Assembly (NCBI GenBank): GCA_965235115.1 | Contig: OZ249436.1 | Span: 15,254,001 to 15,318,000, forward strand | Direction of reading: 5' to 3' | DNA from: Laetmonice hystrix | Lineage: Eukaryota | DNA length: 64,000 nucleotides | In this document: in pieces, positions 43,613 through 54,855 of the stretch | How the letters are laid out: each line of letters begins with the position of its first letter | Position numbering within the stretch: the stretch's first letter is position 1 | Program-made: the position numbers and the translations under genes | The notes under the pieces: generated by a model | The model's input: the letters and a program-made list of their open reading frames with translations, nothing else | Databases searched by the model: none | Told to the model about the DNA's origin: nothing

Positions 43613-46193
43613 ATGAATATGATCGGGTGGGACTGGTTCAAGGACATGTTGGGCTACCTTGGTAAGTTTTCTTTATATATCGTCAAGGAACCAGCACAGG
43701 AAGATTCCGACGAGTCTTGAGCAGTGTTGGTTTTCTGTTGACAGTGTTGTAAATTCGAAATATCTTCAGGCACAGATCTAGATCTATGATTTCTTGTATT
43801 AATGTAGGTCTAAGTAGGCTAAATGGTAGGCCTATAGTTTGCGTGCATGTGTTTTAATATCGCGATTTTCGCCCCCCTCCAAACAAACAAACAAACAAAC
43901 AAACAAACAAAACACAATACGTGAAATTAAGAAACGCCAAACTTAAAGTCGTGAAAATAAAGTCGCTTTGTCAGAGATGGAATGCATGCTGCCCTCTGGT
44001 GGAAGGATGAGTAGCTATACGGCAATGACTGGCATTTAGGCCTAATACATTTTTTTCACTTATTACCACCGGCGCCATTGTGAGTTTAAGAAAAGCGAAT
44101 TCAAACCAAAATGGGGGAAACCCACTGATTTTTGTAGGCCTATGCAGCCTAGGACCAAGTTAATAGGTAGGCCTACGAAAACCAGTGCATGAGATGCAAC
44201 TGGAACTGGATTTAGGAAATTGAGACACCAGTGGGAAGAGGTTTTGGCCTCTCAGATACACTTGACAACTTAGGCTATATCTATAGTATTTTCTCACAAA
44301 ATGATGATATGTTAGGATTTGTTTTTTTCTGAGATGCCATATAGGCCTACTTGTTGTTGCAAACAGTAGGCCTATTTCGTTGATGTGTTGCCTTTACTGA
44401 AGACACAAGAAGACCTGCATTTTCTTTTGCATTGGCGTGGATCATCTTTACTTCTTTCAGTTCCCTTCTTCAAAAAGAAAAAAGCCACACTTCTGTTGCT
44501 TGGCCTGGATCACGCCGGCAAAACTACTTTGTTAGGTCGACTAAAAAATGACCGACTTATTCAAGCAATGCCGACCTTGATGCCGTGTAAGTCGTTCTAC
44601 ATCAATGATAAATGTTGCTGATATACAGAAGGAAAAACACAACATATATTTTAATGCCATAGATAGTATTTCTACGAGGTTAGCCTGGTTTAGATCTATA
44701 GCTATTGGCCTTCTCTCCACAGCGTCGGAATCCCTGACGTGCGGCAATATATCTTTCACCACCTACGATCTTGGCGGACACAGACAAGGTAAGATGGCGC
44801 TATGGACCAAGGTGACTTCTGCTAGCATGGGCGGGTCCAAGATTTTTAAAAGGGCGCCGGGGTCCAAGAGGGAACGCTGAAAATAATACGGGGGCGGCAT
44901 TGGACCTCTTTATCACGAAGAAATCTGACCAGCTCCCCCCCCTTCTGATGGGAGGAAGTGTCATTCGCCAACAATTGCTTTATATAGGCTTATAGGTGTA
45001 AGGAAACTGACAGACTATTCACTGTTTAGTCCGGCGAGTTTGGAAGACATACCTCCCCGCTGCTGATGGAATTCTCTTCATACTAGATGGCGCTGATAGG
45101 GAACGCTTCGACGAGGCCAAAGCCGAACTTGACGTAAGTAGGCCAAGGCCTGCATACATGTAGGTCTACTGATTTGTAGGATCGAGTCTCTCGTATTGTA
45201 GACGTTTGAGATACGTAATATAAAATAGGGTACAACACAATACACGTACACATGTAGGTAATGATAATAATTAAGCCTATAAGTGGACCTGTTGAAGGAA
45301 ACAAGGTAGACCTCACATCATTTTGTGCATTCCGAATAGAAAGTAGGCCTAGACAAGAATATTACTATAAAACCTAATCATTTATCATTATTTACAGCAC
45401 CTGCTTTGTGACGATGAAATATCTCATATACCAGTCGCAGTCCTGGTGAATAAAATAGATATTTCTGGGGCCGCGAACGACAAGGAGATTTCCCAATATT
45501 TTGGGCTAGCTAGGTCCACCTGTGGCAAGGTAGGGAACATATGGCCGTAGAGGCCTGATTGATTGTTTTGGAGGACATTAGGTGGTGATACCTGGTTCAA
45601 GATTTGTTTATTTCTTTCCAACATACAAGTTACCAGTAAAAAATAGGGATGAAAAAGTTCATACATGCATGAGAACTTCATGTATCATTTAGTTACTGAC
45701 ATTTAATGATTATGTCTTCAAGCGACAGTCTCGTCCTTGTCTCGTCCAGTGCGATAGGCTGGCCATCCTAACTGTCGATGTGCTATTTATAGACGTCAGT
45801 TCCTATGCTACAGCATAGGATGGTCGTAGCTATCAAATAGGCCACTAGGTGGCTGCGAGCATGGTCTAACGGACGAGACTGTTGCTTTAATAATCTCTAG
45901 CAGTGACGGTCACAAAATTATAAGCTTAGGCTAATAAACCTAAATGATACAGGCCGTACATGGAGTCGTCGACATGAAATCTTTATAGGCTTAAATAACA
46001 AATAAGATCCCGGAAGTTCATTGCTTTTTCCGTTAGTTTTACTGTCTAAATTATTCATGAAGGTGTTCTTTTCATACAGGATGACTGCAGCACTCAAGAA
46101 GAGGGAAAGCGGGCACTAGAATTATTCAACTGCAGCCTCGTGATGCGCCAAGGATATGGAAGTGCCCTAAAGTGGCTGGCCCAACGTATATAG
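43613..46193 (+). CDS. Divergent Sar1-like small GTPase, 196 aa
   Basis: Exons 43613-43661 ([16 protein letters not shown]), 44461-44586 (GLDHAGKTT), 44723-44788 (DLGGHRQ), 45030-45133, 45398-45529 (NKID), 46080-46193 ([20 protein letters not shown]); 591 nt, intact frame, same intron positions as SAR1. Confidence 0.92.
45717..45890. mobile_element. Short MITE in the last intron of the Sar1-like gene
   Basis: Imperfect TIR AAGCGACAGTCTCGTCC / GGACGAGACTGTTGCTT, TTAA at the right end. Confidence 0.55.
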
Positions 46194-49296: not shown

Positions 49297-52200
49297 TCAA
49301 TTAATGTACTGGGCTAGCCAGCGGAAGCCCTCACCATAGCCTTGCCTTTTGAGTACACTGCACATGAACAGTTCCATTGGACGACCATGCAATTCACTAC
49401 GTGGTACAACTCCCTGAAAACAAGCAAATTTCAAGTGTTAAAGAACTGCAAATGAATAGAGCTCAATGCAGCAAAAGGTTTTGGTTCAATCCCAGTAAAA
49501 CTTGGACTAGTGTACACCAATATAATTGCAACACTATAATTGTTCACATTACCGGGGTATGTATCATTATTCATGCAAGTCGGTGTCAGAAAGAGAACAG
49601 AAAATAAGTCCACAAAATGAAGGGGAAAAGTCATCCTGGAATATACTTTACAGATGAAAATAGACTGATATGATTGATAGAACTTGTGTTCAAAAAACAA
49701 CCAATGCATACCTTTCCTGTGGTTTGTCCATGGAGACCAAACATGTGTCTTAGTTCGTCTTCACTCGCTGCTCCTGCTGCATCAATCTTGTTACCAAGAA
49801 CAAGGACTGGTGCACTTGATATCTGCTCATCTGTCAGTAAACTCTGCAGATAGAAGAAAATAGCCATCCATATACTTGTTTATTTAAATTTCTATAATTA
49901 TGCTTGCATGGGAAAGACAAAGATCATGAGTGTCAATTTCTTTAATAGAAACCCTCATCCCTGAGTCACCAGAACTTGTCTATCACTATCAGAGTCAAAC
50001 ATGAGAATGAATGTGCTTCAAAAAGGCATCTCACCTGCCATTGATTGGTTTCAAGGTTAAAAAAAAGTGAAATTCCACCAGTCAGTGGAAAACTCTCAAG
50101 CCTGCAGAGTCCACTTATAACAGGACTGTTTTACATTACAGAGGCTTCTTTGATGTATGATAATTCTTAAAAATCTTAACTTACATCGAGCTCTGCCTTG
50201 GCTTCCACAAATCTTTCACGATCAAATGCATCAACAAGGAACACAATACCATCTACTGCTGGAAAATAGTCTTTCCATACTCTGCGAGCTGCAATTATAC
50301 GTGAAACAATATCAGCTTCTAATGAATCCATGAATAAACCTATTATACTGTGTATCCTACAAATTGTCAATTATCAAAAGGCTGCATCAAGACACAGACT
50401 GCCATAATGCATAGCAATACCATCATTATGGAACATTACCACTAGACTTGTCCGCATGGTGTTTTGGCAAAACCAAATGTTCTACACGTACTCTGGTTTG
50501 GGAATGGGTTTTATGAGGGATACATTATGGTCCTACAAAGACACCTCAAATCATGGCACTCTAGTCACACTCTATCTCATGTGATTATACTTATAGGTTA
50601 TTTTTTTTTAGCCTGGACTACCCCTTTTATAAACAAAAGTTAAAGGTTTTATCCGTCAAAAGTTTACTCATTTTTGAGAAATGATCTCTGAAACTAGGAG
50701 CTTCTAAGAAATCTGTCTAGTTGTTAACTTCGAAAAAAAACAACAACCTAAGTTGTGTTCATCTCTGGTTCCTATACTAAAGCAAAACTTCTACTCCTTC
50801 CTACCTTGCTGATGACCACCAAGATCAAATGTTGTGAATCGCATCCCTCCCATAGACAACTCCTCTGAGGCTGTAAGGGGAAACGCACTGCTACAGGTAT
50901 CAAGTACACAGTGAAAGGGCTTTTCTCTTAACATGAACTGTAAATAATACCGGTATTAGGCCATCCCAACGTTTCAGGTAGGGACATTTGAACAATTTGA
51001 GCATCTGTCATTTCACTAAAGTTACCACTGAGGTTCATGACAATATCTTGAAATATATCTATGGTGAACACCAATTTTCAGTTCACCTTACTACATGTGT
51101 ACAGTTGATATAGTTTGGCAAGTTTTTCCAGTATAAAGATAAACAAAATAATGTATAAAGTATACTGATCAGGACTAACAAATGTTAGCAACACAAAAGT
51201 ATTATAGGCTCCAAGATCATAGCAAATTTAATGGAAAGCATCTTGTTAACTTAGTACAAATACTACAGGGAGTAAGGCGTGCAGATTAATTGGCTAGTTT
51301 TTAACTATACAATGCTCATACATGTACAAATTCAAATCTGATCCAGGTTATGAAAATTATTAGAACTTCATGTTACTGATCCAGTTATAAATCTGCCAAT
51401 TGTTCTCGTTTTCTGCTCTAGCTAGTGGCATTTCTATAAATTTGAAAGTCTAATGAAAGAAATTTATTTTTACATTTGAAATAAAAATTTTAAAAATTGC
51501 CATTGGCCACAACATTAAATAAATATCTCTACAGTGCTATCTTCTAAAACACAGATTCCTGGTAGAGGTTGGCGTCAGCCCAAGCCTTACTTGGATGCAG
51601 TGTTGGGACATGTTGTGCCATTCGATCATCCTTTAACATGTGAAGGAGCGTTGTTTTGCCAGCATTGTCCAGGCCTAGGAAAACTAGCTTGCCAGATTTT
51701 TTGTAGAGGCCTGCAGCAACAAGCACATGCAAAACAACACACATCACAATAGGTACCATGCCATCAGAAGTCTGGCCATTCATAGCTCCAGCTATGTACA
51801 CTTGTCTTATTCTATTTTGATAAGATCTCTAACATGATTTTAACAAATCTCTAGCTAAATGGACTTGGCAGGATTCTCAGAGATTGTTCCAATTGATTGA
51901 TTTTCCATGCCACAATCCAGTTTCCCAGAACCTTTCAAGTTCACAACTTTTTCCTGGACATTGCCTCCAAGCGTCTATAGATCTAAAAAGGAGACTGCCA
52001 AAGGTTCTTTCCACTCTTCAAAATCTGGTAATCACTTGAGAGTATACTGCAGACAACCTGCCCCTTCTTTAACACTTTAACCCTTTCACTATTTGACAAC
52101 AATTTTATAACTTTAATGGGTGGGTCAAAGTACACAGGTGTGTACATGAATGGTAAATTTTCCCAGAGTATGACCATGAGACATCATGTATGCATTCTTT

Positions 52201-53798
52201 TGCATATAGACATGACAATGGTGATAGTATAAAATTTCCCACTTGTGGTTAAGGTAGAGGCTAGTGTTATAGTGGCAACCACATTTGAGTTTTGTTGAAA
52301 TATTTGAGAACAAAACTGAAAACTGATTGAGGACAATCACAAGACAAGGTTTAAATGCATTCCCCATTCAACCTCACACTTGGCAAGTGGGGAATCCACA
52401 ATAGAAAATGGTATACATGCCCCTGCTAGTCAGGTACAGTTGCATGGGGTGATGCATAAATTTCTTATCTGACTAGACTACCAAGTACCATAGTCCTTTC
52501 AATCAGGGTAAACAGAACTTTGCACATTTGAATGACTGATTCGGTATCTTGTCTGGTAAACAGGATTTGTATACTTTGGTAAACAAACGTCTACAATTTT
52601 TGAAAGCATCTGTAGTACTATCCAGTCCATCCATAAAAATGTTGACTGAGTTTTGGTCACTTCCTCATAGGTTTTGTCCCAGAGTCTTCATTCATCAGTA
52701 CATATTTCTAAACTTTCCAAAGCCTGTTGACAACGTGTAAACACGAACCCCTACAACAGAGATTAAATATTATGTCTGCCTCATTTGCAACTGTCACAGT
52801 AAATAAAATGATGATATAACCTGCCCAATGCTGAACCTTACGGGCTTTCTTTTTCTCACCTATCATTCTTCTCCTCCAGCTCTACTAAGATAGCAGGTTA
52901 TGAGATGACTAAAGTCAAAGGAAACAGTACGTATCATGTACACGTCCTCATTTCCCCCTCTCCCTCTGGATCATGCTGATCACCCAAACAAATATACTGT
53001 AACTGTACCTGCCAGAATGAATCCGCCAAGTCAGGCCCCTGTCATCTGAATTTTCGCTATTTTTTCGGGGGGGGGGGGGGGGGGTTAGACTGACAAAATG
53101 GCCTGAATTCCCAGCACTGTGCACTTCACTGAATTTAGGACTGGAAGTCATAAGACCTGATGATTTCCCCCTTCACTGTCAATCTTGCTTCTTCATTATG
53201 AGGGTTTAAACCAGAGGAGGTGACCACATCATGAGAACAAATAAAAGAAGATTGATGGACTTCTACTTCATGCTACAGCCTTGGCCTGGTCAATGTACAT
53301 GTATACCTCTTTCATTCATTCCATGGCACACATCTGGTAAGAACCAAAATCTAGATTTGTCCCTCATGCCACAAGCTTAGCCTCTGTACCGACTTACTGG
53401 GATGCAAAGTAGGCACAGGCTGGGTCATGTGACCAGCCTTTAGCACACTAAGTAGTGTTGTCTTTCCTGCATTATCCAGACCAAGGAAGATTATCTTTCC
53501 CTTTTTCCTGTATAGACCTGCCACAATTAAATACATTATCTTCTGATCATGTACATTCTTTAAGCACTCGTCTGGAAACAAGATAACATCTGATAAAAAA
53601 ATGGAAGAGATATAAATTTTTATAAAAAGTCTTTTTATCACATTATATGAATTCACAAACTTTTGATGGTAAATAGCAATGAACATAGATTTGCAAGATT
53701 TATAATGTAACCAGCACTTTTGCTATATTGTTATCTCCTTACAAAAGGGTCGTACCTAAGAAGTTCAAAACGCCAGCAAACCAATCCCAGAGGAACAT
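49297..53798 (-). CDS. SAR1: GTP-binding protein SAR1 (COPII small GTPase), 193 aa
   Basis: Exons 53798-53756 ([14 protein letters not shown]), 51710-51591 (or 53517-53398), 50870-50805, 50288-50185, 49843-49712, 49413-49297 (...[21 protein letters not shown]); 582 nt. Probable non-coding first exon with GTGAGT donor at 55663. Confidence 0.97.
51591..51710 (-). CDS. SAR1: SAR1 canonical exon 2B ([40 protein letters not shown])
   Basis: 120 nt, CAG acceptor, GTAAGG donor; canonical animal Sar1 sequence. Confidence 0.93.
53398..53517 (-). CDS. SAR1: SAR1 alternative exon 2A ([40 protein letters not shown])
   Basis: 120 nt, CAG acceptor, GTAAGT donor, phase 1-1; same size as exon 2B. Confidence 0.85.
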
Positions 53799-54855
53799 CT
53801 TGGTTGCTCCTTTCTGAAATACACAAGATGAATCCACATAAAACAGAGTTACAAAATGTTACGGAGTCAACCAACTTAATTTAGAGTATGTGTTTAATAA
53901 AGATCAGATCAGCTGAACGTCAGACATTTTTGGTCCAGTCAGACATCACAATCAACCATCACATAAATGACAATTTCTTTAACCAGTTACCATTTACCAG
54001 GGGGTACATATTTTCTTGGTGGTAGCTGCCGGGGTAGCTGTCACAAACAGAAAACCTATGCTATGGCAAAGCTCTGATGAGCGTACAACTATCTGAAGTT
54101 CAGAACATCGATTTTCGTCTCAAAATCGAGACCCAGAGGCAGAGTGACATTCAGGATCTCGCCACACAGGCAGTGAGTTTTTGCCGGACAAAATGACCAG
54201 CGCAACTGCAACAAACGCCGGACAATGTCGACGAGCGTCGGTCGTGACCGAATGTCCGATGCATTTCGGGAACACTGGCACCCAGTGATGAGACAACAAG
54301 ATGTTATATACTGCCACCGTATTATTGAGTATTCTTTCGAAAATTTTCCTCAGCTGCTTGTTGCACACAACTGGGCATTCGATGTTGGGAGTCGAATATA
54401 TGAACCAGTGTTCTAGCTAGAAGAAAATTATAGCATGGGGGTAACTGCTGTTTAGTGCTAGGTAGGTAATTGTGATGTGCTTTGCATCCCACAACTACGT
54501 ACCTAGCTAGCAAAAAAAATTGAAAAAGGGTGTAATTTGGTGCAATCTGGTGAACATTCTGCAGATCTAGTCTATCACTCCCCCACAACTGGTCTTCACC
54601 ATACTTATCACAACCCTTCACTGTTTTATATTGTATCAGCGATTTTTGGCCCTAAAGAATATTTTATAGCCTATGAATTGTTTTGGTCATGTACTCACTA
54701 GTATCAGGGACTAAACCTCAGTATATTGACCCAACATGCCAAAGGCTATCTTGAACACTGAACACTATGTCTATTGATTCGCACATTTCTTCAAAATTTA
54801 TCAGACCCAATCACTAATCTCAAAGCTATCCTACTGTATAACATATTAATCTCTG

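Follow-up and report, generated by a model that had tools for sequence, protein, structure and literature searches.

The window, by which we mean the whole 64,000-nt stretch of Laetmonice hystrix DNA analysed, carries a SAR1 gene on the minus strand. Searching it by tblastn with full-length Sar1 proteins revealed one exon 1, two copies of exon 2 (located by sequence reading and tblastn and designated 2A and 2B) and single exons 3 to 6. The preliminary description had placed two 120-nt, phase 1-1 copies of exon 2 between a single exon 1 and a single exon 3, and both were found where it had put them. AG stands directly before each copy and GTAAG directly after it, and the refined SAR1 exon borders are AG/GT throughout. 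SAR1 and the adjacent Sar1 paralog comprise the following features:

53756..53798, minus strand: SAR1 exon 1, coding part; ATG at 53798, phase 1 end (tblastn, borders, sequence)
53398..53517, minus strand: exon 2A, upstream variant copy; 120 nt, phase 1-1 (sequence, Pfam, exon tree)
51711..53397, minus strand: intron between 2A and 2B; 1687 nt (sequence and genomic contigs)
51591..51710, minus strand: exon 2B, downstream canonical copy; 120 nt, phase 1-1 (sequence, Pfam)
50805..50870, minus strand: SAR1 exon 3; 66 nt, encoding the rest of switch I, the interswitch and DLGGH (tblastn, borders)
50185..50288, minus strand: SAR1 exon 4; 104 nt (tblastn, borders)
49712..49843, minus strand: SAR1 exon 5; 132 nt, encoding NKID (tblastn, borders)
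49297..49413, minus strand: SAR1 exon 6; 117 nt with the stop codon (tblastn, borders)
43613..46193, plus strand: divergent Sar1 paralog, adjacent and tail-to-tail; 6 coding exons (tblastn, Pfam)

An acceptor AG lies just upstream of the SAR1 ATG, and a further non-coding 5' exon is therefore implied. Exon 2A encodes strand beta1, the P-loop, helix alpha1 and the first half of switch I. The computed reading frames remain open over 193 residues with 2A alone, 193 with 2B alone, 233 with both and 153 with neither. The 2A exon has a CAG acceptor and a perfect GTAAGT donor, and its pyrimidine tract, as read from the sequence, is weaker (less pyrimidine-rich) than that of the 2B acceptor. The intron between the two copies contains a poly-C run and a high-depth repeat near 52968-53124.

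The neighbouring paralog mentioned in the preliminary description is real. Its coding exons measure 49, 126, 66, 104, 132 and 114 nt, with a single exon 2 and an open frame of 196 residues. An exhaustive phmmer search for relatives of the paralog returned 27 weak matches only (best E-value 5.1e-7; 42-58% identity where identity was given), and a word-based search with its exon 5 found nothing.

Membership of the SAR1 products in the Arf family was assessed with Pfam PF00025. Profile positions 11-48 matched 2A at 5e-11 and 2B at 7.9e-13, both scores exceeding the curated cut-off, and orthologous full-length isoforms matched at 2.4e-59 and 2e-61. The G motifs are complete (P-loop GxxxxGK[S/T], switch I threonine, DxxGH and NKxD): GLDNAGKTT and VPTLHP are present in both exon-2 copies, while exon 3 encodes DLGGH and exon 5 encodes NKID. 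Among solved structures, chains of SAR1B/SAR1A were matched by the orthologous 2A isoform P0009 at 1e-86 to 1e-90, and yeast Sar1 from its complexes with Sec23 and with Sec12 was matched at about 1e-60 to 1e-67. Compared with the chiton isoforms, the window forms containing 2A and 2B were identical at 169/193 and 173/193 residues, respectively.

Divergence between exons 2A and 2B

The encoded peptides differ at 11 of 40 residues and are identical at the other 29, as previously counted. Four of the differences lie in the strand before the P-loop and are conservative changes. The other seven fall within a single 11-residue stretch of helix alpha1 and switch I, at window residues 38, 39, 42-44, 46 and 48, which correspond to hamster Sar1 residues 43, 44, 47-49, 51 and 53 (offset +5). 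These positions belong to the C-terminal end of helix alpha1 and to the flexible first half of switch I. Comparison of the 39 whole codons identified 11 identical codons, 17 synonymous differences and 11 residue-changing differences, so that the heavy recoding reported earlier amounts to 17 of the 28 codons for shared residues. This excess of recoding over the 11 replacements indicates that the duplication is old and that purifying selection has retained 2A.

Homologous exon pairs in molluscs and arthropods

Judged by its sequence, 2B is the canonical exon, found across animals, and its 39-residue peptide from the window is 100% identical to that of the chiton 2B isoform. By the same standard 2A is a conserved mollusc-type variant. 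The preliminary description had suggested looking for 2A in other invertebrates, and 20 further mollusc-type sequences with the lineage residues were recovered, giving a set of 21 with the window included; named carriers were Liolophura, Patella, Sinanodonta, Pomacea, Physella and Biomphalaria. In this set V39 was kept in 21/21 sequences, S38 in 18/21, G43 and H44 in 19/21 each, and Q47 and P48 in 20/21 each. Residue 42 was E or A in all 21 and never D; it is Ala in the window but Glu in 16/21. The window 2A showed 77-90% identity to 14 other 2A sequences. Seven of the 20 non-window sequences run on into exon 3, as in a spliced form, although one of these, a 191-residue product on a 3891-nt Logan contig, might be a retrogene rather than an mRNA. 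In the exon tree, the window 2A was placed inside the starred clade of 11 mollusc-type upstream exons (96/95).

RefSeq models of SAR1b(-like) genes from Liolophura sinensis (X1/X2), Pomacea canaliculata (X1/X2/X3), Patella vulgata (X2) and Physella acuta (X2) present the same gene and the same exon in the two sequence types seen in the window, namely an upstream SVLK[E/A]GH..QP type and a downstream type with the canonical 11-residue stretch. Their 2A exons are 80-90% identical to the window 2A. The isoform pairs of Liolophura and Pomacea differ only within positions 17-53; both genera have 2A-only and 2B-only isoforms, and Pomacea also has a model with both exons (233 aa). These mollusc isoforms are computed models in other species, whereas the window locus carries no annotation and is known from genomic sequence.

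Chelicerate SAR1 genes (Argiope bruennichi, Stegodyphus dumicola X1-X3, Centruroides vittatus X3) likewise have an upstream variant and a downstream canonical copy. The spider models from Argiope and Stegodyphus include 2A-only, 2B-only and both-exon forms, the same three kinds as in Pomacea, and their isoform pairs again differ only at positions 17-53. Models containing both exons (232 aa) were present in RefSeq or GenBank for Argiope, Stegodyphus, Centruroides, Parasteatoda and Nephila. Unlike the window 2A, upstream exons of chelicerates retain K[D/E/S]DR, and only 8-9 of their positions depart from the canonical exon. Chelicerate upstream exons and mollusc-type ones nevertheless shared one branch of the exon tree (87/77; 87% of 200 bootstrap trees), which moderately supports a common origin on 39 alignment columns. 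Insect and shrimp models (Molorchus, Anabrus, Timema, Periplaneta, Penaeus) also contain a second, upstream copy of the P-loop exon. These insect copies have diverged much further. In several of them GKA or GKF takes the place of the expected GK[S/T]; the copies have no TLHP end, and in the models they run in frame into the canonical exon. Long branches make their position in the tree unreliable.

The exon pair is thus real but not unique, as the preliminary description had implied it to be: the arrangement is widespread and stands in databases as annotated isoforms of chitons, snails and spiders, forming a database-annotated yet unstudied alternative-exon system. A literature search on Sar1 with mutually exclusive exons, exon duplication or Drosophila splicing found no paper on the SAR1 exon pair, judging by titles and abstract openings; the pair may be listed in the 2013 Drosophila exome study (Hatje and Kollmar) or in Kassiopeia. 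The main texts of PMC9741552 and PMC3923563 do not mention SAR1.

Alternative use of the pair and its predicted consequences

Among small GTPases, RAB6A/RAB6A' is an example of tandem-duplicated mutually exclusive exons. Kassiopeia recognises such clusters by neighbouring exons that are homologous, resemble one another in length, share a reading frame and have conserved splice sites (PMC3923563, excerpts), and the window pair shows 120 versus 120 nt, 29/40 shared residues, AG/GT borders and phase 1-1. The earlier argument that neither steric hindrance nor NMD can enforce exclusivity here is sound, given the 1687-nt spacing and the 120-nt exons, and excerpts of PMC5740500 describe many mutually exclusive clusters that likewise have no steric or frame-based cause. 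That class is defined by exactly one exon per mature transcript. A search for sequencing runs of Laetmonice hystrix listed three genomic runs from one sample and no RNA run, and the contigs of those runs retain the introns and show no splice joints. The proposal of mutually exclusive splicing therefore held in part: alternative 2A and 2B isoforms are annotated in Liolophura, Pomacea, Argiope and Stegodyphus, but strict exclusivity is not established, since models of 232-233 aa with both exons exist in Pomacea and spiders. A search for docking and selector sequences of the Dscam type found no intron pairing beyond what chance gives: dinucleotide shuffles did as well as or better than the best ungapped pairings between the three introns in 22/40, 14/40 and 33/40 cases. 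The 30 inverted repeats returned by a repeat search were short and AT-rich.

We consider it likely that 2A and 2B are homologous tandem duplicates used as alternative exons, so that one gene would yield two Sar1 GTPases of 193 residues each. It is unlikely that 2A instead acts as a cassette added to 2B, with a 233-residue protein carrying two P-loop segments as the regular product. Joint inclusion does leave the frame open, and the both-exon models of Pomacea and of the 232-aa species named above would fit such a product; however, Pomacea, Argiope and Stegodyphus each have both single-exon isoform types annotated alongside the double form, duplicate exons that share a frame are often strung together by gene predictors, and the Sar1 fold would offer one site that cannot take a duplicated strand, P-loop and helix. 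Slightly less probable still is that 2A persists in Laetmonice hystrix as an intact-looking but silent relic that is no longer spliced into mRNA. The poorer pyrimidine tract of its acceptor would be in keeping with disuse, but the exon has an open frame and good splice sites at both ends, its lineage-specific residues are kept across the 21 sequences, and with 17 synonymous differences from 2B a long-unused copy would have gained stops or frameshifts. A pseudo-exon reading of 2A was rejected on its open frame, intact splice sites and conserved residues.

The relic reading is also opposed by a second haplotype or individual, represented by genomic contigs from three runs of one sample, in which 2A is the same. 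It differs by 35 listed substitutions over 4.7 kb. Exons 2A and 2B contain none of these, and the only one in an exon (50839) was read as synonymous; zero polymorphism in a 120-nt exon is not significant, as about 0.9 differences would be expected. That the second exon copy is an assembly artefact or an exon of a separate gene is extremely improbable. Contigs from the three runs span both copies and the intervening intron, although the assembly may itself derive from the one sample behind them. Nucleotide identity between the copies is just 69% (83/120), which does not resemble a collapse or duplication in assembly, and other species have the same exon arrangement annotated. The preliminary description had named membership of 2A in another gene as grounds for abandoning its proposal, but tblastn found no other exon 1 or exon 3 nearby. 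The evidence supports 2A as a genuine SAR1 coding exon, neither a relic nor part of another gene, and under alternative use of the pair both forms are probably spliced in Laetmonice hystrix, with 2B as the presumed default.

Because the P-loop GLDNAGKTT and the invariant VPTLHP are alike in 2A and 2B, both products should bind and hydrolyse GTP. The change from Asp-Asp-Arg to Ala/Glu-Gly-His removes charge and places a glycine at the helix end. Switch I spans residues 48-59 of hamster Sar1, and in Sar1-GDP residues 49/50-54 are disordered (PMC2150902, excerpts). The replacement may alter the motion of switch I and, through it, the kinetics of the GTP cycle or the way in which coat partners read the GTP state. 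For Sec12, switch I is not a contact surface, and the Sar1 structural papers examined yielded no residue-level link of positions 47-53 to Sec23.

Vertebrate SAR1A and SAR1B might serve as a model for how the 2A and 2B forms differ. Excerpts of Melville et al. 2020 (PMC7307210) describe two closely similar Sar1 proteins per organism, as proposed here, whose small sequence clusters alter exchange kinetics and SEC23/SEC31 binding; these small differences change SEC23 affinity and lipoprotein secretion in vertebrates. According to the same excerpts, however, SAR1A and SAR1B arise through gene duplication and not splicing, and their divergent clusters, at residues 106-117 and 139-146, lie outside the exon 2 region. 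A broader and more tentative scenario, which we regard as possible but somewhat doubtful, is that exon 2 was duplicated in the common ancestor of molluscs and arthropods, that the upstream exons of molluscs, chelicerates and insects are orthologous, and that protostomes would thereby have a route to two functionally distinct COPII GTPases from one gene, with a different switch I hinge in the 2A form adjusting coat recruitment or the GTP cycle to particular secretory loads. If true, the SAR1 exon pair would be the protostome counterpart of the vertebrate SAR1A/SAR1B gene pair.

For annotation, the appropriate gene model treats 2A as an alternative exon instead of joining it in frame to 2B. The naturally conserved 2A/2B pair would also offer a ready-made experiment on the flexible first half of switch I. 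Every COPII vesicle is initiated by Sar1, and if invertebrates obtain two Sar1 forms by swapping the exon encoding the P-loop, helix alpha1 and the first half of switch I, this would represent an unstudied layer of COPII regulation in these animals.

SAR1 and its two exon 2 copies

A complete SAR1 gene was identified on the minus strand of the window from the sequence, a tblastn map and the exact exon borders. It carries two copies of exon 2, an upstream variant (2A) and a downstream canonical copy (2B).

SAR1 coding features in the window (exons 1 and 3-6 from the tblastn map and border analysis)
53798-53756, minus strand, exon 1, coding part
53517-53398, minus strand, exon 2A, 120 nt, phase 1-1
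51710-51591, minus strand, exon 2B, 120 nt, phase 1-1
50870-50805, minus strand, exon 3
50288-50185, minus strand, exon 4
49843-49712, minus strand, exon 5
49413-49297, minus strand, exon 6

AG/GT was present at every exon border, and the introns flanking and separating 2A and 2B measured 238, 1687 and 720 nt. The frame stayed open for every choice of exon 2 (2A alone, 193 residues; 2B alone, 193; both, 233; neither, 153). The preliminary description of these exons was right in each detail checked against sequence, tblastn, borders, codons and Pfam. An acceptor site, tttcag, precedes the start codon by 15 nt (53799-53825, minus strand), so one or more non-coding 5' exons should lie farther upstream. 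No canonical SAR1 locus was found elsewhere in the whole genome (627 Mb, 35 contigs), the remaining matches being Arf-like genes of 32-42% identity.

We compared the two copies in the correct frame, where each encodes 40 residues and 11 of these differ. Seven of the differences fall in a single 11-residue stretch, including Asp-Asp-Arg of 2B, which is Ala-Gly-His in the window 2A and Glu-Gly-His in most relatives; the remaining four precede the P-loop. The P-loop and VPTLHP do not differ, and Pfam PF00025 matched both copies above its curated cut-off, over identical profile positions. Nucleotide agreement was 83/120, and the 39 whole codons comprised 11 identical, 17 differing only synonymously and 11 changing the residue. 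The 17 synonymous differences fit an old duplication with protein-level selection.

Only three public runs hold the stretch, all genomic and from one sample, and their contigs span both exon 2 copies and all introns. Across 4.7 kb, these contigs, representing a second haplotype, gave 35 listed substitution sites, none inside 2A or 2B. The sole exonic substitution, at 50839 in exon 3, falls at the third position of an arginine codon and was read as synonymous. The pattern fits exon constraint, without being significant for a single 120-nt exon. In two of the three runs, summed contig depth at 52968-53124, within the 2A-2B intron, reached 239-434, compared with about 60 elsewhere. This segment holds many loose contig ends and a poly-C run, and in one contig 51 nt at 53049-53101 were swapped for 147 other letters; its appearance suggests a repeat or mobile element that contains a structural variant.

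2A-type exons in other animals

We searched a protein collection with the 2A peptide (best 120 of 2275 significant proteins) and with a profile built from 15 exons of the 2A type (best 120 of 4963 proteins). The results of both searches show that 2A is not peculiar to the Laetmonice hystrix genome. Among the matches listed, at least 21 2A-type exons were gathered, the window included, with named carriers being the chiton Liolophura, the limpet Patella, the snails Pomacea, Physella and Biomphalaria, and the mussel Sinanodonta. V39 was present in 21/21 and S38 in 18/21; residue 42 was Glu or Ala in all 21 and Asp in none, and Gly43 (19/21), His44 (19/21), Gln47 (20/21) and Pro48 (20/21) were widely shared. 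Of the 20 sequences from outside the window, seven read directly into exon 3 and so represent spliced models or transcripts, among them a 191-residue unnamed product of a 3891-nt Logan contig; the remaining 13 are open frames in genomic DNA that run on into the intron. The window 2B peptide showed no differences from that of the chiton.

Cluster look-ups revealed that RefSeq gives both exon 2 forms for one gene. The same 2A/2B pair is already annotated in several molluscs: in Liolophura, isoform X1 carries 2A and X2 carries 2B; in Pomacea, X3 has 2A, X2 has 2B and X1 has both (233 aa). An equivalent pair is annotated in the chelicerates Argiope and Stegodyphus (X3, upstream exon; X2, downstream exon; X1, both, 232 aa). 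The isoform differences were confined to positions 17-53, inside exon 2, in all four pairs. Insect models (Molorchus, Timema, Anabrus, Periplaneta) have a more divergent counterpart of the upstream copy with a GKA P-loop. This much more divergent upstream P-loop copy, continuing in frame into the canonical exon, was observed in insect and shrimp models (matched proteins P0013, P0017, P0020, P0024, P0031, P0034, P0005, P0029 and P0095); GK[S/T] is replaced by GKA or GKF in several, and the P-loop lysine is missing from one wasp model. Literature searches, which did not extend to the Drosophila MXE gene lists or to Kassiopeia, turned up no study of alternative exons in SAR1. The pair is a further example of a kind known in databases and apparently unstudied.

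In a first exon tree (39 exon columns, 38 rows), window 2A fell within an 11-member clade of mollusc-type upstream exons (93/95) with the backbone open, and the four insect upstream copies sat on long branches. After removal of the eight rows of four insect gene models (Periplaneta, Anabrus, Timema, Molorchus), the mollusc-type clade was starred (96/95) in the 30-row tree, and one branch parted all 15 upstream exons (11 of mollusc type, 4 chelicerate) from the 15 canonical or single exons (87/77; present in 87% of 200 bootstrap trees). This branch lends moderate support, from 39 columns only, to a single exon 2 duplication predating the mollusc-chelicerate split.

Splicing control and the neighbouring paralog

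Mutually exclusive use of 2A and 2B had been proposed, with steric hindrance and frame-based decay excluded as its cause. The exclusion held, because the intron is 1687 nt long and both exons are 120 nt. Strict exclusivity is not established, given the 232-233 aa models with both exons in Pomacea and the spiders. The absence of a steric or frame explanation is not unusual: in a human survey, steric interference is possible in 9% of clusters, exon lengths are not a multiple of three in 60%, and the rest are ascribed to other mechanisms (PMC5740500). A search for competing RNA pairings returned 30 inverted repeats, short and AT-rich, and the best ungapped intron-pair pairings were equalled or beaten in 22/40, 14/40 and 33/40 dinucleotide shuffles of the window introns alone.

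Tail to tail with SAR1 lies a divergent Sar1 paralog:
43613-46193, plus strand, intact, six coding exons

Its coding exons (49, 126, 66, 104, 132 and 114 nt) keep the SAR1 phases and encode 196 residues, with 105-108/197 residues (about 54%) identical to the two SAR1 forms. The G motifs are intact, the P-loop reads GLDHAGKT, and the single-copy exon 2 is two codons longer than that of SAR1. No close relative was found: the word search was without a match, and phmmer matches were 42-58% identical where identity was given. The paralog is a real third Sar1-like product at the locus; calling the three a "system" is interpretation. Among the 2A-profile matches, plant models of 370-381 residues (P0143 and P0144; Cannabis and Stylosanthes) scored 116 bits, described as about twice a single Sar1, versus about 82-101 for single-copy Sar1. 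This suggests two Sar1 units each, most likely fused tandem genes.

Predicted consequences for the GTPase

The swapped segment comprises strand beta1, the P-loop, helix alpha1 and half of switch I, the first. Since the P-loop and VPTLHP are the same, both products are expected to be active GTPases. Adding 5 to a window residue number gives the hamster number, and the 2A-2B differences at hamster positions 43, 44, 47-49, 51 and 53 lie at the alpha1 end and within the mobile portion of switch I. Replacement of Asp-Asp-Arg would alter switch I dynamics, which in turn could change how fast nucleotide is exchanged or hydrolysed, or how coat proteins recognise the GTP state. Sec23, like other readers of small GTPases, reads the switch regions of Sar1; Bi and colleagues reportedly described this in 2002. 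In hamster Sar1, switch I spans residues 48-59, with 55-59 close to the nucleotide; in the GDP-bound protein, residues 49/50-54 are disordered (Huang et al. 2001, PMC2150902). The additional appeal to remodelling of switch I by Sec12 needs correction, as switch I is disordered in the Sec12-Sar1 complex, with the interface formed by the P-loop, interswitch, switch II and alpha3 (Joiner and Fromme preprint).

Frog SAR1B proteins (P0042, P0045, P0091, P0094 and others) have KDGR, KAGK or KEGR in place of KDDR, and this amphibian variation falls on the same two positions as that of exon 2A. The overlap raises the possibility that Sar1 has specialised repeatedly at the end of helix alpha1. Functional differences between vertebrate SAR1A and SAR1B are assigned to residues 106-117 and 139-146 (PMC7307210), so the invertebrate exon swap would diversify another surface, distinct from the one that differs between the vertebrate proteins.
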